Positions 4,514 to 44,935 of a stretch of 64,000 nucleotides of DNA are shown piece by piece. How positions within the stretch are numbered: the first letter of the stretch is position 1; every line of letters begins with the position of its first letter. The DNA is taken from the IMG/VR virus record IMGVR_UViG_3300024268_000023, one strand, 5' to 3'. The notes under the pieces were generated by a model, which worked only from the letters and a program-made list of their open reading frames with translations, searched no databases and had not been told where the DNA came from. Both the position numbers and the translations under genes were made by a program. The DNA comes from a virus. Taxonomy: Duplodnaviria; Heunggongvirae; Uroviricota; Caudoviricetes.

Positions 4514-6115
4514 ATGGCATTTTACGATTTGCTTACAACTACTTTGGATAATATAACGTTAAACAACGGGGATATTATTGAATGTAGATATTCTGGGAAT
4601 TATAAAGAACTAAAACTGCCCAAAGGGAGATATTTGTTTGATTGCTACGGAGCGCAAGGAGGCACGGTTACTAATGCTGGGCATAGTAATATGATCAGTG
4701 GCAGTGATTCCCCGATAATAACGACACATCTCGGTGGACTTGGAGGACGGATTTATGGAGAAATATCCGTTGTAGAAGATACGGTCTTTTACTTATATGT
4801 TGGAGGAGAAGGACTAGAGGGGTGTTATCAGTTTGAAGGAATCCTCCCCGGAGGGTGGAACGGAGGAGGAAGTGTTTCTAATGCATACTTTGCAGGTAGT
4901 GGCGGTGGAGCAACAGATATAAGACTTTCCCACAATTTAGAAGATAGGATTATTGTCGCAGGCGCTGGTGGTGGTGGCTGTGTCGTAGGTCAATCTCTTG
5001 AAACCGATAAATATTTCGCTTTCGGCGGTGCGGGAGGTGGAATAAAAGCAGACTCGGGCTCGGTTTATAATACTTTAGAATCCTATAATTGCACTGTTGC
5101 AACTGGAGGCTCTCAAACCGAGGGAGGCATTGGCGCTTCAATAACTGGCTCTTATACTGCGCAACAAGGGGAAACAGGCAGTCTTGGAGTTGGTGGAGCT
5201 GGCACTGGAAACATAACAAAGAAACAATGTGGTGGTGGCGGCGGCGGCGGCTATTACGGAGGCGGAGGAGGAACTCTTTTATATACTAGTGGTTACGGCA
5301 ACGGAGTATTTAGCTCTGGAGCAGGGGGCTCAAGCTTTGCCTCTACGGCTTTTTCAAATACCATCCACGAGCAAGGAACGCGAAAAGGAGACGGGTTAAT
5401 TAGAATTACTGTTCTTGATTCTAATAATGAAATTTCTATTTACGTTAAAAATAATGGAAGAATACTACAATCCTCTAAAATTAATTGTAAAGTTGGAAAC
5501 GATTGGTATATAGCTGATGCTTTATATGCAAAAGTAAATAATGAATGGACAGAATGCGGGAAACAAGTCCATACTCAGCCACCTCTTGAAGATGAAAGTG
5601 GGTCTGAAGGATCGGCATTACAAAGAAAGTTATATATATACGAACAAGGAAAATCCGATGTTTTTAAACAAAATTATGGGGCAGAAACAAGTAGCTATGG
5701 AACAATTGGTTATAATTCGGATGGAGAATATTATCTTTATAGCACTTATGGAAATCTAAATTTCGTAATTACAAACTGGATAGGCCCGATAAATTGTTCT
5801 GGATATTCTAAACTTATAATAGAATATAACCGTAATAGGAATGTTAGCAGTAGTGGTTTGTATGTTGGATATGGATATGACACCGATATTGATTTACCTG
5901 ATTCAAGTGCAAATTGGGAGTCTTACTTAAAAGCTGTTGATAACGAACAAGGTATATATGTTCAAAAAAAATTCGATATAACTAATATTGATTCGGATTT
6001 TTATATCAAGATATATGTGTCAGTCCCAAGTAGCGTAAGCTCAAGAACTTCAGTCATCGCTATTAAAAATATTTGGCTTGAAAGATCTCCGGGCTTAGAA
6101 ACTGATTCGGAATAA
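4514..6115 (+). CDS. glycine-rich tail fibre / collagen-like repeat protein
   Basis: 533 aa with long Gly-rich stretches (GGGGGGGYYGGGGG, AGAGGGG) and a C-terminal beta domain. Followed by a strong terminator. Confidence 0.55.
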   Translation: MAFYDLLTTTLDNITLNNGDIIECRYSGNYKELKLPKGRYLFDCYGAQGGTVTNAGHSNMISGSDSPIITTHLGGLGGRIYGEISVVEDTVFYLYVGGEGLEGCYQFEGILPGGWNGGGSVSNAYFAGSGGGATDIRLSHNLEDRIIVAGAGGGGCVVGQSLETDKYFAFGGAGGGIKADSGSVYNTLESYNCTVATGGSQTEGGIGASITGSYTAQQGETGSLGVGGAGTGNITKKQCGGGGGGGYYGGGGGTLLYTSGYGNGVFSSGAGGSSFASTAFSNTIHEQGTRKGDGLIRITVLDSNNEISIYVKNNGRILQSSKINCKVGNDWYIADALYAKVNNEWTECGKQVHTQPPLEDESGSEGSALQRKLYIYEQGKSDVFKQNYGAETSSYGTIGYNSDGEYYLYSTYGNLNFVITNWIGPINCSGYSKLIIEYNRNRNVSSSGLYVGYGYDTDIDLPDSSANWESYLKAVDNEQGIYVQKKFDITNIDSDFYIKIYVSVPSSVSSRTSVIAIKNIWLERSPGLETDSE

Positions 6116-6180: not shown

Positions 6181-6252
6181 AGAAGAAGGTGAAAAGATGA
6201 AAGAAGTTTATGCGCCTTCGGGTTCACAGCTTTTGTTTTTCCCGATGGAAGA

Positions 6253-7161
6253 ATGGCGCTTATGAAACGCAAAGAACATAAATTAATTTCGAACGTTGAG
6301 TGCAAGCATTGTTACAAGTGTGATCAATGGCTTCCACTATCGTGCTTTGGGTCTGATAAAAGCAAATGGGATGGATTGAATGCTTCTTGTAAAGAATGCG
6401 AAAAAATAAAGCGCGATTCAGAAAGTTATAAGAAAAAATCAGTAATCAATGCTCGCAATTATTATGAAAAAAATAAAAATAGTGAGGATTTTATAGCCCG
6501 AAGAAAAGCTAATATCGAAAAGTTCAAAGAAAATAACCCGTTTTATAGCCAAGAGTATCATCAAAGAAACAAAGAAAAAGACAATGAAAGAAATTGTAAG
6601 AACTATTGGAAAAACAAAGAAAAATACAATTTGCGTTCAAGAAAGAATAATGCCCGTATATACAAAGAAACCCATCCTCACGCAGGAGAAAAGGTTGTTT
6701 CGCAAGGCGAAGAGTTTGTTGCAGATTGGTTGCAGAAACACGGTATTTTTGAACGGTTTGATTTCTATGGCAGACATTATTACGAAATCTTTGGTGAAAT
6801 AAAAGATAGCGATATTTACTACATACGGCAATATTGGTTTGAAGATTTAAAAGATAAAAAGAAACTATTATTTGATTTTTATATACCGAAGTTAAATGTA
6901 ATTATTGAGGTTAATGGCATAAAACACTATGCTCCAAAAAGTTTTAGTAAAAATGCAACTAAAGAAGATCGCTTAAAAGAATTTGCGGAAACGACATTGC
7001 ATGATCGGAAAAAATGCAGATATGCCGAAGAGCATGGAATAGAGGTCTTCGATATTAAATATGGGTTCGGAAATTATAAATTCCCTTATGTTGAGGCGGA
7101 ACTCAACAAAATAATGCAACCGTTTTTAAAAGAACAGGAAGGAAAGGAGATGTGCGCATGA
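6253..7161 (+). CDS. homing-endonuclease-like protein (N-terminal Cys4 zinc finger plus C-terminal Vsr/DUF559-like PD-(D/E)xK domain)
   Basis: CKHCYKCDQW...CKECEK zinc-finger motifs. C-terminal region FDFYIPKLNVIIEVNGIKHY fits the D...(E)VDG..H motif of Vsr-like nucleases. The gene is flanked by a ~60-bp direct duplication (6197-6256 and 7159-7218). Confidence 0.5.
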   Translation: MALMKRKEHKLISNVECKHCYKCDQWLPLSCFGSDKSKWDGLNASCKECEKIKRDSESYKKKSVINARNYYEKNKNSEDFIARRKANIEKFKENNPFYSQEYHQRNKEKDNERNCKNYWKNKEKYNLRSRKNNARIYKETHPHAGEKVVSQGEEFVADWLQKHGIFERFDFYGRHYYEIFGEIKDSDIYYIRQYWFEDLKDKKKLLFDFYIPKLNVIIEVNGIKHYAPKSFSKNATKEDRLKEFAETTLHDRKKCRYAEEHGIEVFDIKYGFGNYKFPYVEAELNKIMQPFLKEQEGKEMCA

Positions 7162-7282
7162 AAGAGATTTATGCACCTTCTGGTTCTCAACTTTTATTCT
7201 TCCCGATGGAAGAGTGCACCGTTGCTGCAGGATATAAAAATACAAAGTATCGCAAAGATTATGGGTATGTCCATTACGGGGT
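7159..7282 (+). CDS. putative exon 1 of a split M23 peptidase gene
   Basis: Encodes MKEIYAPSGSQLLFFPMEECTVAAGYKNTKYRKDYGYVHYGV. This parallels the GYKNAYYKSIYKMHHYGLD segment of the downstream M23 domain. The frame terminates 19 codons later. Confidence 0.4.
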
Positions 7283-7520
7283 GAAGATCGCCCCCTGGGT
7301 TTTATTCCAGAAAAAATCCCGTAAAATCGGTGAAGCCTGAGATGGTAATACCGAGTTCCCACGAAACCAGCGGGGAATGTAACGCATAGGTAGTGAGCGC
7401 TATGGAAGCAATAATCTACCCACGAGTACGGGACAGCGAAAGCTGAAAATGTATGCTGAACTTATACGAAAAGGAAGTATAAGAACTATTGGATAAAAAG
7501 CCAATAGGATAACAAATTTG
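7283..7520 (+). other. candidate group I intron (~238 nt, no ORF)
   Basis: Separates two pieces of an M23 peptidase reading frame, with a frame change from 0 to 1 and no ATG downstream. The upstream exon ends in U and the proposed intron ends in G. An internal guide-like GCCCCC near the 5' end can pair with exon CGGGGU. Local GC is above the surrounding sequence. Confidence 0.35.
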
Positions 7521-8643
7521 GGACTTCGATGATCGTTGGGGCAAAGACTTTAACGTACTTGCCTCAGGAACGGGTAAAGTTATAGGTGTAGAAAAGAACA
7601 GCAATAGCATCGGCGGTGTTGTTGTAATTCAGTATGACAATGTCTATAATCCGACCACAAAACTTAAGAGAAACCTTATTGTTCGTTATTATCACCTTTA
7701 TTCTTTAAAGGTAAAAAAAGGACAAACCGTCAATGCTTACGATGTTATCGGGACTATCAGTGGTTCTCATAAATGGTGGAATCATATCCATTTTGAGATT
7801 GATACGGACATCAAACACCCATTTCACACCCCCCAGGTTGCGGAGGGTTCGAGCAAATTGCTCATTAGAGCAGGTGCTACCGCGACCACTCTTTTGAACC
7901 CTATGTCGGTTTTGGTGGTCGGAAAGAAACAAACAGCAAGAGTTCACTCTCTCGCTGTTTATGCAACAACTGCGGTGGATTCTCCTCGTTTCTGCGAAGG
8001 GGATCCACCCCCTAAAGAAGAAATAAAAGCACCGATTCAGAAGCTGATTATGCCGATGAATGATGCAAAAATTACTTGCGGATATAAAAACGCATATTAT
8101 AAATCAATTTACAAGATGCATCACTATGGGTTAGATATGGTGAGTGCAAGCGGTAATAGAGAACTTTATGGACTTGGGAATGGCACTGTTGTTGCTGCAG
8201 GTTGGGATGGAGTTACTGCCGCTAAAAATGGTGCAAGCGCCGGAGCAGGGTATGTTTTAATCATTAAATATGAAGGCGTTTATAACCATAACACGAAAAA
8301 ATCTTGTGATGTGGTTTGCACTTTTATGCATATGAGAGAAGCTCCTCTCGTAAAAGCTGGAGACAAAATAACTACGGAAACTCTTTTGGGCTACTATGGT
8401 GGCACAGGAGCATATGTCAGCGGGGATCATCTTCATGTTCAATTTGACACAGACACAAAATATCCTTTGGCCTGTATGCCTATGGCTGCCACTGGGCACA
8501 AAATTTTAAAGCGAGGCACAATAGACTCCACAGTAGAGCCTTGCTATATACTGCACAAAGGAAGAGGGCAGACAGTTGCCCTTGGAGCTCACAGCAAACA
8601 ATTTGACAGTGTCAAAGTATTGGGAATTCCCACTGTAACTTGA
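7521..8643 (+). CDS. M23/LytM-family peptidase (putative exon 2; two M23-like regions)
   Basis: Frame is open from 7513 without an ATG until 7858. It encodes VLASGTGKVIGVE...HIHFEID and later HHYGLD...HLHVQFD (HxxxD and HxH M23 motifs). Confidence 0.55.
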
Positions 8644-8684
8644 AGATAAAGGATAATATTTTGAAGGAATGGTGTTAGTAAGAA

Positions 8685-9317
8685 ATGTTGAACTACATAG
8701 AATATCTTGGATTACCGAGTACAATTGCAATTGGTTTGGTAGTCTTGTTTTTTATTCTTCAAGTTATTGGAGAATTGCTGGAGTTTAAAGGAAAAGTCGT
8801 ACCGGAAGTTTTAAAAGTAAGAAAGTATTTTGCTCGCAAAAAAGAAGAGCGCGAAACTCTTAAAAAGATTCCAAGTCTTGTTCAAGGAATGGAAGAAAAA
8901 ATGGAAGCTATGGGTGAAAAGTTTGATAACTTTACAGCACATTACACCGATGACAATATTGACAAGCGCAATGATTGGATTGAAAAAGTAAATAAACACC
9001 TTACTGATAGTGGTTGTAAATTTGAAGGAATTGAGGCTAAAGTAGAAAAAAATGCTTCGATTTCTACAAAGCTCCTTATCAACACCGAACGTAGAGAAAT
9101 TATTGATTTTGCTCTTTATGTTTCAGATGAATCTCATCCGGTGACAAGAGAACAATTCAATAGGATTTTTAAACTTTATAACGAATATGAAGACATCATA
9201 GCGGAGAACGGCTTGAGCAATGGCGAAGTTGACATCTCTTACGGCATTATTAAAGAAGCATATGAAAAACACATGAAAGAACATAATTTTATTGAAGATA
9301 TGCATAACAGAAACTGA
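8685..9317 (+). CDS. hypothetical protein with N-terminal TM helix
   Basis: 210 aa with a hydrophobic N-terminus followed by charged coiled-coil-like sequence. Confidence 0.5.
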   Translation: MLNYIEYLGLPSTIAIGLVVLFFILQVIGELLEFKGKVVPEVLKVRKYFARKKEERETLKKIPSLVQGMEEKMEAMGEKFDNFTAHYTDDNIDKRNDWIEKVNKHLTDSGCKFEGIEAKVEKNASISTKLLINTERREIIDFALYVSDESHPVTREQFNRIFKLYNEYEDIIAENGLSNGEVDISYGIIKEAYEKHMKEHNFIEDMHNRN

Positions 9318-9328
9318 GGCGAAAAAAT

Positions 9329-9922
9329 ATGGGGAAAAATTTAGAATACAATAAAAAGGCTTTTGAACAGCTTGTTGAAGCGCCTGGAAGCAAATCTGTT
9401 TTCTCTCGTGACGGGTTTATTGAATATCAAAATGGAATGACCAATATAAAATATGGCCTCGTTACGGCAGCTTACGGTGGCTGTGGCGCTATTGCTGCGT
9501 GGAATATTTTAAAGGTTCTTAACGTTGCTCCGGATAAAGCAACACTTTTTGATGAAATGGAAAGAGGGCTTGTCCTCGGAGGCAAGCTTGGCACTGATAT
9601 TCTTTTCGTTAAAAGATATTTGAGCCAGAAAGGTCGCCAGGTGGATATGTATTGTTCACTTAAAGGATTCAAAAGAGCATTTTCCCGTATGGGAATTCTA
9701 TATTATATGAAAGACAATCTTAGGGCTCATTATGTTGCTTTCACTCCTGCAGGCACTAATGAAAAAGGCGAACTTTTATATAGATTCCATAATGCTGCGG
9801 CAGGCTCTTACTGGAAAACTTTTGATGGCATTAAATACATGGAACAGCTACCTATGACGATGGATGAATTTCTGAAAGAATCCAACGCGAAAGTCAAGGT
9901 GTTTTACGATGTTCGGAAATAA
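9329..9922 (+). CDS. putative papain-like/CHAP-like cysteine peptidase
   Basis: GGCGAIAAW cysteine context, and HYVAF histidine about 97 residues later. Position next to holin-like genes suggests a lysin role. Weak call. Confidence 0.35.
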   Translation: MGKNLEYNKKAFEQLVEAPGSKSVFSRDGFIEYQNGMTNIKYGLVTAAYGGCGAIAAWNILKVLNVAPDKATLFDEMERGLVLGGKLGTDILFVKRYLSQKGRQVDMYCSLKGFKRAFSRMGILYYMKDNLRAHYVAFTPAGTNEKGELLYRFHNAAAGSYWKTFDGIKYMEQLPMTMDEFLKESNAKVKVFYDVRK

Positions 9923-10253
9923 TCGGTTTTCTCGGAATCATTTAAATAAAAAGAAGAATCAAGAACAACGTTCTAAATCAATGTTCGTTCTATATTGGGT
10001 GCAGGCACTTGCTACGGTGACTGCGCTCTTTTCTTTTTGGAGCTGTATTGCAACGGGAGACACTACCGCGCTGACAGTGCTTATCCCTTCCGTGTTTGTA
10101 GATGCTTCAGCTGTAACAGCTCTTGTTTTATGGAAACGCAAAAATGAAAGAGCTTTTTCTTTCTTTTCTGATAAAGAAATGAGAAAAGCAATTGAATGGT
10201 TTAAGGAACATGATATTGACCCTGTCGATTTCTTCAGGGCACTTAAAGAGTAA
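9909..10253 (+). CDS. membrane protein (holin-like)
   Basis: 114 aa with two predicted TM segments after a basic N-terminus. Confidence 0.4.
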   Translation: MFGNNRFSRNHLNKKKNQEQRSKSMFVLYWVQALATVTALFSFWSCIATGDTTALTVLIPSVFVDASAVTALVLWKRKNERAFSFFSDKEMRKAIEWFKEHDIDPVDFFRALKE

Positions 10254-41437: not shown

Positions 41438-41513
41438 TGGTTGGGGTGGCGGGATTCGAACCCACGAGATGCAGGAGTCAAAGTCCTGTGCCTTACCGCT
41501 TGGCGACACCCCA
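41438..41513 (-). tRNA. tRNA-Gln(TTG)
   Basis: Hand-folded cloverleaf close to E. coli tRNA-Gln (UGGGGUGUCGCCAAGCGGUAAGG...). Anticodon loop CTTTGAC. CCA is encoded. Confidence 0.7.
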
Positions 41514-41516
41514 GTG

Positions 41517-41592
41517 TGGAGCTTCTATACGGAATCGAACCGTAAACCTGTTCATTACGAATGAACCGCTCTGCCAGTTGAGCTATAGAAGC
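41517..41592 (-). tRNA. tRNA-Thr(CGT)
   Basis: Acceptor GCTTCTA/TAGAAGC. D-arm GCTC-AACTGGCA-GAGC. Anticodon stem GTTCA/TGAAC with loop TTCGTAA. T-arm TACGG-TTCGATT-CCGTA. Confidence 0.6.
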
Positions 41593-41671
41593 AAGCTTAA
41601 GCTGGTTATCTCAAAAAACGGTACCGACGCGAGCGCCAATTCCTGGAAACCAGATAACCATGGTTTTGAGC

Positions 41672-41747
41672 TGGTGGGCCTTGAGGGACTCGAACCCCCA
41701 ACCAACCGCTTATGAGGCGGCTCCTCTGCCAGTTGAGCTAAAGGCCC
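41672..41747 (-). tRNA. tRNA-Met(CAT) (elongator or Ile-lysidine type)
   Basis: Acceptor GGGCCTT/AAGGCCC. Anticodon loop CTCATAA. T-loop TTCGAGT. Confidence 0.6.
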
Positions 41748-41856
41748 AGAAAGACGCGGTCTTTCCCGCCGTCAGCCGACTTTCATCGGCAATTTTATGA
41801 AGAATAAAAAAGCAGCGGCATCTGTACCCTCGCAAGAAAGGATAAAAGATGGCCTT

Positions 41857-41939
41857 GGTGCGCCTGACAGGACTTGAACCCGCAAGCCATTCGACACCAG
41901 ATCCTAAATCTGGCGCGTTTGCCATTTCGCCACAGGCGC
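41857..41939 (-). tRNA. tRNA-Leu(TAG)
   Basis: Acceptor GCGCCTG/CAGGCGC. Anticodon loop TTTAGGA. Long variable arm. 83 nt. Confidence 0.65.
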
Positions 41940-42283
41940 ATTTTCGCTGAAGTGGGGCGGAGATTGCGCCGCCCCACGCCCGGTCAGTTTTTATTTTACC
42001 GACGTGTCAGAACCGTCACACGTCATCACAACAGCGGAAGGTGTTTAGGTGAGCACCTTCAAGCTCAATTGCTACTCGCCTCACGAGCACATAAACACAG
42101 GAGGGTTGCAATTTCCTCATCTCCAATAATGGCGACGGCAGCACGTTCCGTCCTCTGTGCGTGGGGCAACATCAGTGGCGACACTTATTTCACAACCACC
42201 ATAAGAACCTGCACCAGCGCAGGCACCGGTACAGTAAGAAATTAGTTACCGATTTCTTATGCGAAGTGTCTTTAATGCGAATG

Positions 42284-42357
42284 GAGCGGATAACGGGAGT
42301 CGAACCCGCCTATCCAGCTTGGGAAGCTGGCATTCTACCGATGAACTATATCCGCAA
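42284..42357 (-). tRNA. tRNA-Gly(CCC)
   Basis: Acceptor GCGGATA/TATCCGC. Anticodon stem CCAGC/GCTGG with loop TTCCCAA. Confidence 0.65.
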
Positions 42358-42429
42358 GTAGGCGTGGCAGACTATAAAGCGGCCTGCCGGCGCTTTGAAA
42401 AAGGAGGGATTATGATTAATACTTATACT

Positions 42430-42504
42430 TGGAGCTGGTGGACGGATTTGAACCCCCAACCTGCTGATTACAAATCAGCTGCACTGCCATTGTGCTACAC
42501 CAGC
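42430..42504 (-). tRNA. tRNA-Thr(TGT)
   Basis: Acceptor GCTGGTG/CACCAGC. Anticodon stem GCTGA/TCAGC with loop TTTGTAA. Confidence 0.65.
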
Positions 42505-42558
42505 GCATGCCCTCGTCTTTCCGAGGCGTCAGCCTTGTACTGAGGCAAGATACATATC

Positions 42559-42628
42559 TCATGGCGGCAGGAATCGAACCTGAGACACGCCCCTCTCTGG
42601 GCTGCTCTACCAACTGAGCTACGCCATG
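42559..42628 (-). tRNA. degenerate/short tRNA-like gene (70 nt, anticodon arm not foldable by hand)
   Basis: Perfect 7-bp acceptor CATGGCG/CGCCATG. Canonical D-arm GCTC-AGTTGGTA-GAGC and T-loop TTCGATT. The 19 nt between the D- and T-arms do not form a standard anticodon stem. CCA is not encoded. Confidence 0.3.
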
Positions 42629-42711
42629 TTGTTTGAGGATTTATTTTACAACTAATCCTCAAAAGTTGTTATGAAAGGAATCGCTTTTGTTTTGGAAATT
42701 TAATTTCCAAA

Positions 42712-42795
42712 CTGGTGCCGGGCAGGGGACTCGAACCCCTACGAATTGCTCGTCAGGGCTTAAACCTGATGTGTCTGCCAATTTCACCACCCCGG
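42712..42795 (-). tRNA. tRNA-Leu(TAA)
   Basis: Anticodon stem TCAGG/CCTGA with loop TTTAAGC. Long variable arm. T-arm AGGGG-TTCGAGT-CCCCT. 84 nt. Confidence 0.6.
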
Positions 42796-42799
42796 CTTA

Positions 42800-43204
42800 T
42801 TACGACACCAATTGTTTTTCTCTTCTGTATTTTCCTATGCAACTCTTAGAGCAGAAAGGGCCTAATTGGCGTCTATATCTATTCCCATAATAATTTTGTT
42901 GCTGTTTAGCCGTCCATAAAAATTCTTTTCCGCAATAAACACAAACAGCAACTTTATCATGGTACTTCGATGGCATATGTTGACGTTGATGTTCACCATG
43001 CATAATAATTTGTAGGTTATCTAATTCATTATTCAATGGGTTTCCATCAATATGGTGAACGTCTTCTTCGGGTAATAATTCACGCCCAAGAAATTGTTCC
43101 ATTAAAAAACGAGGATAGGAAATTACTTTTTTCGATTCTTTAATATAAACCCTTTGTCTGCCGTCTTTACATGTATAGACAGTATAATCTAGGCCTTCAA
43201 TCAA
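42800..43204 (-). CDS. HNH homing endonuclease
   Basis: HHIDGNPLNNELDNLQ...HGEH motif (HNH with the Asn/His spacing). C-terminal Cys4 zinc finger. Embedded in the tRNA array. Confidence 0.75.
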   Translation of the reverse strand: MIEGLDYTVYTCKDGRQRVYIKESKKVISYPRFLMEQFLGRELLPEEDVHHIDGNPLNNELDNLQIIMHGEHQRQHMPSKYHDKVAVCVYCGKEFLWTAKQQQNYYGNRYRRQLGPFCSKSCIGKYRREKQLVS

Positions 43205-43359
43205 ATGGCATCATCCTTTCATATTACGACCCGCAGTGCTTATAACCCTCTACTCAGCACTTGATTTCTCCCGATTAGTTATGCCATCTAACCGCAATAG
43301 AAATCGTTCCCAATTCTACATTCAAAGGAGGGTGTCTATTATAATAATGTATAATAGAT

Positions 43360-43437
43360 TGGTGCCGGTGGTGGGATTCGAACCCACAGAAAAACGCATT
43401 TTGAGTACGCCCCGTTTGCCAATTACGACACACCGGC
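43360..43437 (-). tRNA. tRNA with ambiguous anticodon (CAA in a class-I body, or UCA opal-suppressor-like)
   Basis: Good acceptor (GCCGGTG/CACCGGC) and T-arm (GTGGG-TTCGAAT-CCCAC). Anticodon region GGCGTACTCAAAATGCG folds either with loop CTCAAAA (CAA) or loop ACTCAAA (UCA, with C33). There is no long variable arm, so it is not a normal tRNA-Leu. Confidence 0.4.
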
Positions 43438-43446
43438 ATTTTTATT

Positions 43447-43554
43447 TGGTGGCAAGGGTAGGATTTGAACCTACGAAGTTCTACGAGCGCACGCTAGCCA
43501 GCTCTACGAACGGGAATTTACGGTTCCCTTCTTTGACCACTTGAATACCTTAAC
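43447..43554 (-). tRNA. tRNA-like element, possibly tRNA-Tyr(GTA) with an unusually long (~37 nt) variable region, or a 3' tRNA fragment
   Basis: Clear 3' end (T-arm GTAGG-TTCAAAT-CCTAC, acceptor CCTTGCC, A, CCA). An anticodon-like hairpin GGGAA-CCGTAAA-TTCCC lies 50 nt upstream. The best 5' acceptor partner (GTTAAGG) makes the whole element 108 nt. Confidence 0.3.
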
Positions 43555-43561
43555 CATGTGA

Positions 43562-43639
43562 TGGTGGGGATGACAGGATTTGAACCTGCGGCTTCCTGTT
43601 CCCAAAACAGGAGCTCTAACCAAACTGAGCCACATCCCC
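43562..43639 (-). tRNA. tRNA-Pro(TGG)
   Basis: Acceptor GGGGATG/CATCCCC. D-arm GCTC-AGTTTGGTTA-GAGC. Anticodon stem CCTGT/ACAGG with loop TTTGGGA. CCA encoded. Confidence 0.7.
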
Positions 43640-43728
43640 AGATTTGCGCCGAGCGCCAACTCGGTGCAAATTTGCGAAACAACACAAATAAATGATATTT
43701 TGTTCCTCTTTTGCATTCCCCTTACGGG

Positions 43729-43804
43729 TGGGTCGAGGGGTAGGACTCGAACCTACGACTTTTAGCTTATGAGGCTAAATTGCTACCACTGCATCACCCT
43801 CGGA
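43729..43804 (-). tRNA. tRNA-Met(CAT), initiator-like (C1:A72 mismatch)
   Basis: Anticodon stem TTAGC/GCTAA with loop CTCATAA. The first acceptor pair is C:A, as in bacterial initiator tRNA. T-arm GTAGG-TTCGAGT-CCTAC. Confidence 0.55.
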
Positions 43805-43818
43805 TTTTTGCAATACTA

Positions 43819-43965
43819 TTTATTTTTGCTTTCGTCTTCAAAGAAGAAATCCCCACCAGTCTCCGGGTGTGTCCACAAACCATTGCCTAAATAGTATCTG
43901 CCTTGTTCGTCGTCTTCTCTGCTTTTGTTCATTTGATCATAATTAAGACCAAGTCCCATGACGTC
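43819..43965 (-). CDS. small hypothetical protein (~48 aa)
   Basis: AAAGGAGG RBS before the ATG (MGLGLNYDQMNKSREDD...). Sits between tRNA genes. Confidence 0.3.
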
Positions 43966-44022
43966 CTGCCTCCTTTCTATTGTTTCAGATGTTTTTTGAA
44001 GAGGGAATTAAAAAATTCCTTT

Positions 44023-44111
44023 GGCGGAGAGAGGGGGATTCGAACCCCCGCACGCTTTTACACGCCTATCGGTTTTCAAGACCGAACCCTTCAACCACTT
44101 GGGTATCTCTC
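44023..44111 (-). tRNA. tRNA-Ser(TGA)
   Basis: Acceptor GGAGAGA/TCTCTCC. Anticodon stem TCGGT/ACCGA with loop CTTGAAA. Long variable arm. 89 nt. Confidence 0.65.
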
Positions 44112-44169
44112 CACGCATGTGGGCTGATTGAATTATCTGGTCAATATTAATTCAAACTTTAGCGAAACA

Positions 44170-44250
44170 ATAAAACTCCCGAAAATAACCTGTCACACTT
44201 TCCGCCACAGTTTTGCTACAAGAATGTTTGAAGCAGGGAATGTACCTGGT
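44170..44250 (+). pseudogene. fragment of a tyrosine-integrase gene (catalytic-domain remnant)
   Basis: Encodes KITCHTFRHSFATRMFEAG, which is 16/20 identical to the window's integrase (ITCHTFRHTFATRLFESG) and about 75% identical at the nucleotide level. The remaining N-terminal ~350 codons of an integrase are absent, and the reading frame stops shortly downstream. Confidence 0.55.
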
Positions 44251-44319
44251 TCAAATTTCCAGATTTTTTACGTGTCAGCCCAACACGGAAAGCATTTTCT
44301 TTCGGCTTTTGCCTAGTCA

Positions 44320-44935
44320 GTCTGTGGTTACATGCTTTTCTTAACCCTCGTGCAAAGCTCCACAGATGTACGGAACTGACCCCATCATCTGCTTCATCGC
44401 TCGCCCCCGCCGAGCTTTTTGCAACAACGGGCAGCTTTGAACTCGGCCTTTTATTAGTCGCTTGCCGAGTAGCGACAAACATTTCACGCATCGAATAATT
44501 TATATACCGCACCATCGATAAGCGGTCTTTGTTTAAGTCCACATTAAGGCAGGGAATCACCTCGCCGAACTAGTCGGCTCCAGAACTCGTGACCAAAGAT
44601 TGGAACGAATTCGACGACCCTTTCTGCACATGGCAGACGGGCTAAAGCAAGATCTTACTTAAGACGAATAGCTATGCATTTCGTCTCTGGAATGCCGCTG
44701 TTAAGCGCAACGGCTTAGAAGCTATTCTCACATTCTGTGACGCATGGACGTTTCGCTGCTGAGTCTCGTGATGCCGTTGGCGTTAGCCATTAGGCATCTT
44801 CGTCGACTCAGCAGTCGAAACCCGAGCGCTCGTTCTCTCCTCCTAGGCGTGCCAGTGGCACGGCACGCCCTGGAGGAGAGTAACGAAAAAATCTTTGTGA
44901 TATTTTTTGTTTACTCCAGGTTACACCATAAAGCT
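44320..44935. ncRNA. GC-rich structured non-coding element A (~600 nt)
   Basis: GC content clearly above the flanking sequence. Multiple long inverted repeats (CTGCTGAGTC...GACTCAGCAG; CTCCTAGGCGTGCC...GGCACGCCCTGGAGGAG). No credible ORF. The right end carries the GGTYACACC motif shared with elements B and C. Confidence 0.4.

Follow-up and report, generated by a model that had tools for sequence, protein, structure and literature searches.

A putative group I intron within a two-domain M23 peptidase gene of a tailed phage

Why is the gene for an M23 peptidase in two pieces in the virus record IMGVR_UViG_3300024268_000023 (Caudoviricetes)? We analyzed a stretch of 64,000 nucleotides (nt) from this record, which we will call the window. 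In the public annotation (gene callers, Joint Genome Institute or JGI), the gene appears as a 60-amino-acid open reading frame (ORF) and a "weak" 261-amino-acid M23 ORF. We propose that the 238 nt that separate the two parts of the gene (7283-7520) are very probably a spliced group I intron. An earlier description that was made from the letters alone (the sequence-only reading) had suggested an intron of this kind. The elements of that suggestion that can be checked support it, except for a match to Rfam.

The interrupted gene and its intron-less allele

The gene begins with an ATG at 7158-7160, with a Shine-Dalgarno sequence (AAGGAG) 9 nt upstream. (The sequence-only reading had the correct frame, but started it at 7159.) The exon-1 frame translates to MKEIYAPSGSQLLFFPMEECTVAAGYKNTKYRKDYGYVHYGV. 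This frame was thought to stop right after HYGV, but it stays open for another 18 codons, KIAPWVLFQKKSRKIGEA, and ends with the TGA at 7338-7340. The remainder of the gene is in another frame, which is open from 7513 for 376 codons plus the stop codon at 8641-8643, in agreement with the 377 codons that were described. Upstream of position 7858, and back to 7513, there is no in-frame ATG, GTG, or TTG, so the 115 codons that carry the HxH motif (within HIHFEID) lack a start codon of their own. The absence of ATG had been noticed before, and it extends to the alternative start codons, but the codon at 7858 is TTG and not ATG as reported. The insert has stop codons in all three frames, so it is indeed free of ORFs. 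Its GC content is 42.9%. The window as a whole has 39.6%, exon 1 has 40.0%, and exon 2 has 42.5%; the GC enrichment that was claimed for the insert is marginal.

Joining T7282 to G7521 gives an ORF of 1248 nt that encodes 415 amino acids and reads ...HYGV/DFDDRWGK... across the junction (the slash), which rebuilds the HYGV-D pattern as anticipated. The ligated RNA is predicted to have CATTACGGGGT directly followed by GGACTTCGAT at the junction, and the junction-spanning peptide of the spliced product would be ...GYVHYGVDFDDR.... The insertion is in phase 2 of the codon for Val42 (between the second and third base), within H39-Y-G-V-D43, and the junction (HYG-V-DFDD) restores the HxxxD metal motif. 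The spliced protein matches the M23 family of Pfam (PF01551, 7e-20) in two stretches, as expected if it contains two M23 domains, and the best of these (residues 38-137) crosses the junction. The zinc-ligand motifs of the first domain are HxxxD (H39..D43) and HxH (H130-x-H132), and the second domain has equivalents of both.

An allele without the insert is found on a metagenome contig (ENA ERZ27302875 k141_2847763, which we call L150) that has about 80% DNA identity to the window. By blastn, positions 255-380 of L150 align to 7158-7283 of the window, and positions 380-1669 align to 7521-8829. L150 lacks exactly 7283-7520, with an ambiguity of one base (a G), and reads CATTATGGGGTGGATTTTGATGA across the site. 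The spliced protein is also collinear with more distant homologs. With its N-terminal domain as the query, we obtained 28 proteins, and about 20 of these are full-length and uninterrupted, with lengths of roughly 190-210 amino acids, 58-69% identity, and 91-100% coverage. When we aligned 12 homologs (46-67% identity), all of them had GYxHYGVDFD(S/E/D), without gaps at the predicted junction. The comparison to intron-less homologs that the sequence-only reading had called for thus agrees with the proposed boundaries. We examined 47 homologous M23 loci in collections of viral and metagenome sequences, and the intron is in none of them. The two-domain architecture is common to L150 and three other loci (L154, L160, and L161).

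We see the arrangement in the window, with the same junctions, on 11 contigs, which come from at least two JGI samples, so we can exclude an assembly artifact. A comparison of window positions 1-25000 to phages from GenBank with megablast gave zero matches.

Structure and relatives of the insert

If the insert is a group I intron, then it should fold accordingly. The unconstrained minimum-free-energy (MFE) fold has z = -4.4, and 0 of 200 shuffled sequences were as stable. By itself, this fold gives P1, P2, P3, P4/P5, P6, P7.1, P8, P9, and P9.1 (Table 1). P3 is UCCCGUA/UACGGGA and P7 is A-[C]-GCAUA/UAUGCU; these two helices cross, which gives the pseudoknot that is typical of group I introns. 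The 3' tail, GAUAACAAAUUUG, has G7520 as its end. The U at the end of the exon, the G at the end of the intron, and the P1 pairing were all pointed out by the sequence-only reading, and all three are in place.

We tested these helices for covariation in a MAFFT alignment of 33 distinct family members. The alignment was not fitted to the structure, and as controls we slid the columns by 1-3 positions. Standard pairs occupy 93.1% of the pair cells, versus 34-40% in the slid controls. Both sides have changed in 41 of the 57 pairs, and none of 500 shuffles reached the observed values. P3 is 98.7% paired and all seven of its pairs covary. The other helices of the core are similarly consistent: P4 is 100% paired, P5 98%, P7 100%, P7.1 99.4%, P8 97.7%, and P9 and P9.1 98-99%, with many double changes in the last two. 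At two pairs of P7, 10 and 15 of the 33 sequences have G-C in place of A-U. In contrast to these, G7384-C7456 is G-C in all 33 sequences and lies beside a bulged C7383; it is a candidate for the guanosine-binding pair. At 7460-7518, the P9.0 pair, 19 sequences have A-U and 10 have G-C. The core elements P3-P9 of a group I intron are thus present and supported by covariation. As for P1, its guide strand aligns with a motif, UUGCCGY, that is found directly 5' of P2 across the family (32 relatives), and about 12 relatives have a P1 with the same geometry, with the U 8-11 nt upstream of the G of the guide.

The relatives of the insert also interrupt genes. The 3' 80 nt of the intron are 80-89% identical to sequences from many phages (by blastn), and in all of the annotated cases, the match sits between the halves of a split gene. 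These cases include: phiCD211, a phage of C. difficile, with the match between a "minor tail protein" and the tape measure; Staphylococcus phage 6ec, in a locus with a minor tail protein, an HNH gene, and the tape measure; Bacillus phage PJN02, in a locus with "exonuclease V," "mobile intron protein," an endonuclease, and a Dda-like helicase; and the crAss-like phage cr128_1, among pieces of the major head protein with homing endonucleases between them. The exact pattern of the 3' tail occurs in 2 viral contigs only. The J8/7-P7 pattern was far more productive, and motif scans found about 140 further viral loci.

From the family we built a covariance model (R1), which runs from P3 to the terminal G and has 210 positions and 43 pairs. 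It has 109 matches with E < 1e-5, in 86 viral loci. Annotated relatives from phiCD211, pCD1602_4, 6ec, PJN02, and cr128_1 belong to the same RNA family (108-205 bits), but they interrupt other genes (none is an M23 gene), and many of them have an HNH or LAGLIDADG ORF inside the intron or have several copies per gene. (There are two copies in the tape measure of pCD1602_4, three in the major head protein of cr128_1, and three in L083.) The family is found in phages whose annotated hosts are Staphylococcus, Bacillus, or Clostridioides, and in a crAss-like phage. A sequence profile of the 32 relatives, with the window left out, identifies 7290-7525 (nhmmer, E = 1.4e-45) as the sole match in the 64 kb.

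In phiCD211 (our locus L005; 2332-2582 and 2604-2869), the record includes an "Intron_gpI" misc_RNA that lies 22 nt downstream of a family member. With this spacing, the two introns would be separated by a tiny exon. The second element was recovered neither by Rfam 15 nor by the family covariance model.

The insertion is precise, and the family resembles the annotated group I introns of Twort. R1 aligns to intron 2 of Twort orf142 over the full length of the model (39.3 bits, E = 2.6e-9) and also matches intron 3 (E = 1.4e-4). These alignments terminate at ...UAACAUAAUUG, and the placements are compatible with the spliced product of 142 amino acids. The GenBank entry for orf142 (AF132670) is annotated as "contains group 1 introns." When we used nhmmer with a family profile that lacks the structure, we found nothing in Twort or T4. 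The orf142 introns (subgroup IA2) have the helices from P3 to P9.1 in the same order as the window's family. Both also have GAAC after the 3' strand of P7, a P9 and then a P9.1 hairpin, a tail of the form (G)UAACA..UUG, and a terminal G. Like the intron in the window, the Twort introns are compact, lack ORFs, and are sited in structural or lysis genes of phages. They differ in that the window's family has one hairpin between P7 and the 3' strand of P3, and the alignment to the covariance model skips the P7.1/P7.2 region of Twort. Judging by sequence and predicted structure, the intron appears to be of the phage IA (Twort-like) type; with a single hairpin at the P7.1/P7.2 position, this assignment stops short of a subgroup.

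Several observations weigh against a group I intron. First, the Rfam model for group I introns (RF00028) does not match the element in the window at its gathering score, nor at E ≤ 10 in a search of 601 nt, and it has no match in eight related loci at E ≤ 1. This is the match that the sequence-only reading had expected and that is missing. The negative result is not informative, because the same model puts the T4 td intron at 40.3 bits, which is under its own 50-bit cut-off, and misses the T4 nrdB intron. A 2025 survey also describes RF00028 as incomplete for phage introns (PMC11878797). On the other hand, RF00028 does detect the three Twort orf142 introns (64-101 bits), so our family must be further from the curated model than the Twort introns are. 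Second, P10 is weak: there is a possible pairing of GAAG (7283-7286) with CUUC (7524-7527), but it is offset by 3 nt from the splice site. Third, where classical IA2 introns have both a P7.1 and a P7.2 hairpin, between P7 and the 3' strand of P3, there is a single hairpin here (7389-7420); it covaries and has an optional inner stem. Fourth, an automated test of the 32 relatives, which combined the P1 rule with restoration of the reading frame, was clean in a minority only; in many of the relatives, an endonuclease ORF occupies the P1-P2 region or the exons are very short. Finally, L150 has two in-frame stop codons in M23 domain 1 (RYYL*YSISV*K; L150 255-1502). These may be sequencing errors, or the first domain may be decaying in L150.

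The stop codons in L150 raise the question of whether the insert is a decayed relic of an intron that no longer splices. In that case, domain 1 would be a pseudogene, and the gene would yield just a shorter protein with the second M23 domain, from the TTG at 7858 or a later start. The 60- and 261-amino-acid ORFs that the gene callers annotated are exactly the layout of such a relic, this lineage may, judging from the stop codons in L150, be able to do without the first domain, and the lack of a match to RF00028 would fit as well. But in the window's copy, every pair of every helix is canonical, and its score of 189 bits is within the range of the family. Both exon 1 and those 115 codons of exon 2 that lack a start are intact, with all of the catalytic residues kept. 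Furthermore, the differences from L150 are mainly synonymous: in the remainder of domain 1, 60 codon differences are synonymous and 25 are not, and for domain 2 these counts are 64 and 27. We consider a relic to be very improbable.

Could the insert be some other kind of element or recoding signal? It is small and contains no ORF, the frames on its two sides differ, and no curated RNA family matches it, as might be seen for a fragment of a miniature inverted-repeat transposable element (MITE) or an insertion sequence (IS), an IStron, a group II intron, a chimera in the assembly, or a translational bypass such as the one in T4 gene 60. But with stop codons in all three frames it cannot contain an ORF for a transposase or a reverse transcriptase, and the curated families in Rfam that do not match it include the group II introns. 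At 238 nt it far exceeds the known bypass gaps, and the recurrence of its junctions on 11 contigs from independent samples argues against a chimera. Covariation supports the topology of a group I intron, and the boundaries follow the rule of a U before the intron and a G at its end. IStrons, which are group I introns fused to an IS605-type element, are found in C. difficile and the B. cereus group (PMC4227781). The similarities are that IStrons have IA-type ribozymes and are associated with Firmicutes, and relatives of the window's intron are found in C. difficile phages; but no transposase or TnpB gene is in or beside the 238-nt intron. Taken together, these other explanations seem extremely unlikely.

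Returning to a group I intron, we infer that it is spliced and that the ribozyme is autocatalytic. In the predicted mechanism, the pre-mRNA would fold into P1-P9.1, and an exogenous guanosine at G7384-C7456 in P7 would attack after U7282, which would be held in P1 by the guide UCGCCCC. P9.0 would then set the terminal G7520 in the same guanosine site, and the freed 3'-OH of exon 1 would attack after G7520. This would yield joined exons and an mRNA for the 415-amino-acid enzyme.

It might also be that a genuine intron is excised here, but that in practice it does not catalyze its own removal: it might need a protein cofactor from the phage or the host, or it might mainly be a regulatory gate that ties production of the enzyme to translation or to the stage of infection. 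Many group I introns require protein cofactors in vivo, and this ribozyme is very compact, with a short P5 and P6 and few peripheral elements that would stabilize it. Also, translation of exon 1 enters the intron by 56 nt and runs through P1-P5, so ribosomes could interfere with folding. Against this, the Twort relatives are annotated as group I introns, and Twort introns self-splice in vitro. The strong conservation of the whole core also argues for a self-contained ribozyme. We think that a dependence of this sort is quite improbable.

The endonuclease-like ORF and the duplicated 5' end

The sequence-only reading had described a homing-endonuclease-like gene nearby, and our results agree. 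The ORF at 6253-7161 matches PHROG 9084 ("homing endonuclease," 1.5e-16) and PHROG 559 ("HNH endonuclease," 2.2e-13). Its match to Pfam is weak, and sequence searches of NCBIfam and PDB gave nothing significant. Among 5.8 billion clustered proteins, nothing but the protein itself matches it closely, and an exhaustive search found 3014 remote relatives. The protein has a cysteine-rich module at its N-terminus and a Vsr-like nuclease domain at its C-terminus. Among the remote relatives, the cysteine-rich unit is repeated in other proteins, and the C-terminal domain (about 100 amino acids) is paired elsewhere with CapR and treble-clef zinc-finger DNA-binding modules. An alignment-based AlphaFold2 (AF2) model of residues 165-302 has a predicted local distance difference test score (pLDDT) of 85.6. 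The best match to its fold in PDB is Vsr from E. coli (probability 1.00, TM 0.56-0.58), followed by the nuclease domain of AbaSI. (A model from the single sequence had a pLDDT of 45 and was discarded.) In the alignment of the C-terminal domain, the invariant columns are L41, D44, I54, E55, G58, H61, D87, and K90. Based on the modeled fold and these matches, the ORF appears to encode a modular nuclease-bearing protein of the homing-endonuclease type.

The endonuclease-like ORF lies within the coding region of the M23 gene, and its end is 121 nt upstream of the site where the intron is inserted. Upstream of it, the M23 gene has left a relic of its native 5' end (Table 1). The first 59 nt of the relic (6197-6255) share 85% identity with 7158-7216 and 86% with the intact 5' end in L150, while the downstream copy (7158-7216) has only 76% identity to L150. 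By blastn, positions 241-313 of L150 align to 6183-6255 of the window at 87.7% identity. L150 has a single M23 start. So, the more diverged copy is the one that restarts the gene. Stop and start codons overlap (ATGA) at both of the ORF junctions: the TGA of the relic overlaps the ATG at 6262, and the TGA of the endonuclease (7159-7161) overlaps the ATG of M23 (7158-7160). We also considered 6256-7214 as a second intron that contains the endonuclease, and rejected it: the covariance model gives E = 6.2 there, and the downstream copy of M23 has its own ribosome binding site (RBS) and ATG.

An ORF-less intron beside a free-standing endonuclease gene is the layout of collaborative homing (PMC3984707; PMC10448857). 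The locus resembles this layout since L150, which lacks the intron, also lacks the endonuclease ORF. As in the known cases, the intron has no ORF, the endonuclease-like gene is beside exon 1 of the same gene, and both are missing from the nearest relative. The endonuclease ORF is also missing from the 47 M23 loci. The evidence that the intron and the endonuclease are missing together comes from one close relative and 46 distant loci, which is a weakness of this argument. A sliding comparison of identity to L150 showed no clear co-conversion tract.

The locus also differs from the documented cases of collaborative homing. The putative nuclease has a Vsr-like domain and a cysteine-rich module, instead of being of the Endo VII, HNH, or T5orf172 type. 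Its gene is inside the 5' end of a coding region, with a duplication of 19 codons and overlapping stop and start codons. We did not find this insertion anatomy in the papers that we consulted.

The most likely history would be that the endonuclease gene and the intron arrived together, and were inherited together, via repair of a double-strand break. As in collaborative homing, the intron would then shield the genome from its own nuclease. More specifically, it is possible, if doubtful, that the gene for the Vsr-like/zinc-module endonuclease and the ORF-less intron form one co-mobile unit of this kind, with a nuclease that cuts intron-less M23 genes at the HYGVD site. The 19-codon relic and the diverged second copy would be the scar of an invasion that was repaired by illegitimate recombination, and the chain of overlapping stop and start codons (relic, nuclease, and M23) would borrow the expression signals of the host gene without silencing it. 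If so, then the co-mobility would be driven by the endonuclease.

Table 1. Positions of the proposed features of the M23 locus in the window
Feature	Position	Strand	Details
Relic of the native M23 5' end	6197..6265	+	Own RBS and ATG; first 19 codons MKEVYAPSGSQLLFFPMEE, then out of frame to TGA 6263-6265
Homing-endonuclease-like ORF, outside the intron	6253..7161	+	302 amino acids; JGI call from ATG 6262, 299 amino acids
Exon 1 of the M23 peptidase gene	7158..7282	+	41 codons + 2 nt; 3' end CAT TAC GGG GU
P1: exon GGGGU and intron GA / UCGCCCC, with wobble U7282·G7290 at the 5' splice site	7278..7294	+	MFE and manual fold
Probable group I intron, ORF-less, 238 nt	7283..7520	+	Exact segment missing from L150; family covariance model 189.3 bits, E 4e-51
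P2 hairpin CUGGG/UCCAG	7295..7310	+	Four outer pairs all changed on both sides
P3 5' strand 7317-7323, J3/4 AAA, P4 7327-7331/7350-7354, P5 7335-7337/7344-7346, P6 7355-7378	7317..7378	+	Covariation; J4/5 and J5/4 A-rich
P7 7382, 7384-7388 / 7452-7457, enclosing P7.1-like hairpin 7389-7420, P3 3' strand 7427-7433, P8 7434-7445 (GAAA loop), J8/7	7382..7457	+	
P9.0 (A7459-U7519, A7460-U7518), P9 7461-7483, P9.1 7486-7507, conserved GAUAACA tail, terminal G7520	7459..7520	+	
Exon 2 of the M23 gene	7521..8643	+	Remainder of M23 domain 1 (HIHFEID), linker, second M23 domain (HHYGLD...HLHVQFD), stop codon

Neighboring genes and significance

The two-domain M23 peptidase of peptidoglycan that this gene encodes is probably an endolysin or a lysis-associated hydrolase. 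Downstream of the gene, at 8685-10253, are ORFs of 210, 197, and 114 amino acids. Judging by eye from the translations, some of these have apparently hydrophobic segments, either N-terminal or internal, which fits with a lysis module. In a related locus (L151), the M23 gene comes after a holin gene and an Amidase_2 gene. Upstream, at 4514-6115, is a gene for a protein of 533 amino acids with an ALK/LTK glycine-rich domain (PF12810, 3e-36). This domain is unusual in phages, and the protein may be a tail or fiber protein.

Elsewhere in the window, the minus strand at 41438-44402 has a dense array of 12-13 tRNA genes. This array also contains a drum RNA (44287-44402, 67 bits) and a skipping-rope RNA (42093-42162, 46 bits). 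ARAGORN identified a tRNA with an undetermined two-base anticodon at 42559-42628, and a 105-nt tRNA-like match at 43450-43554 was found by Rfam alone (31 bits).

Group I introns in phage genes for structural proteins, replication, and cell-wall hydrolases are well documented (PMC3984707; PMC4124061; PMC11878797). Among cell-wall hydrolases, the introns in CHAP or amidase genes are, like this one, group I introns at a position within the catalytic domain; the differences are that the gene here encodes an M23 metallopeptidase, in another lineage of phages, and that the intron is from another family. Our results do not change what is known about group I introns. The family that escapes Rfam and the unusual anatomy of the endonuclease's insertion are of modest interest. 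For the mis-annotated gene, the real product would be a 415-amino-acid enzyme with two catalytic domains. The locus would also be an example of a compact ORF-less intron with an endonuclease gene, with a natural empty-site allele to serve as a substrate for cleavage. If the two do form a collaborative-homing unit, then this would add a new type of nuclease and a new mode of insertion to the very few cases that have been documented.

More broadly, introns of this family split genes for tape-measure, capsid, helicase, and terminase-like proteins in many gut and environmental phages. With 109 matches in 86 viral loci, the Twort-like family may be a sizeable and unrecognized source of broken gene calls in metagenomic phage genomes. 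Because the family both breaks genes and escapes Rfam, a dedicated covariance model would repair many phage annotations.

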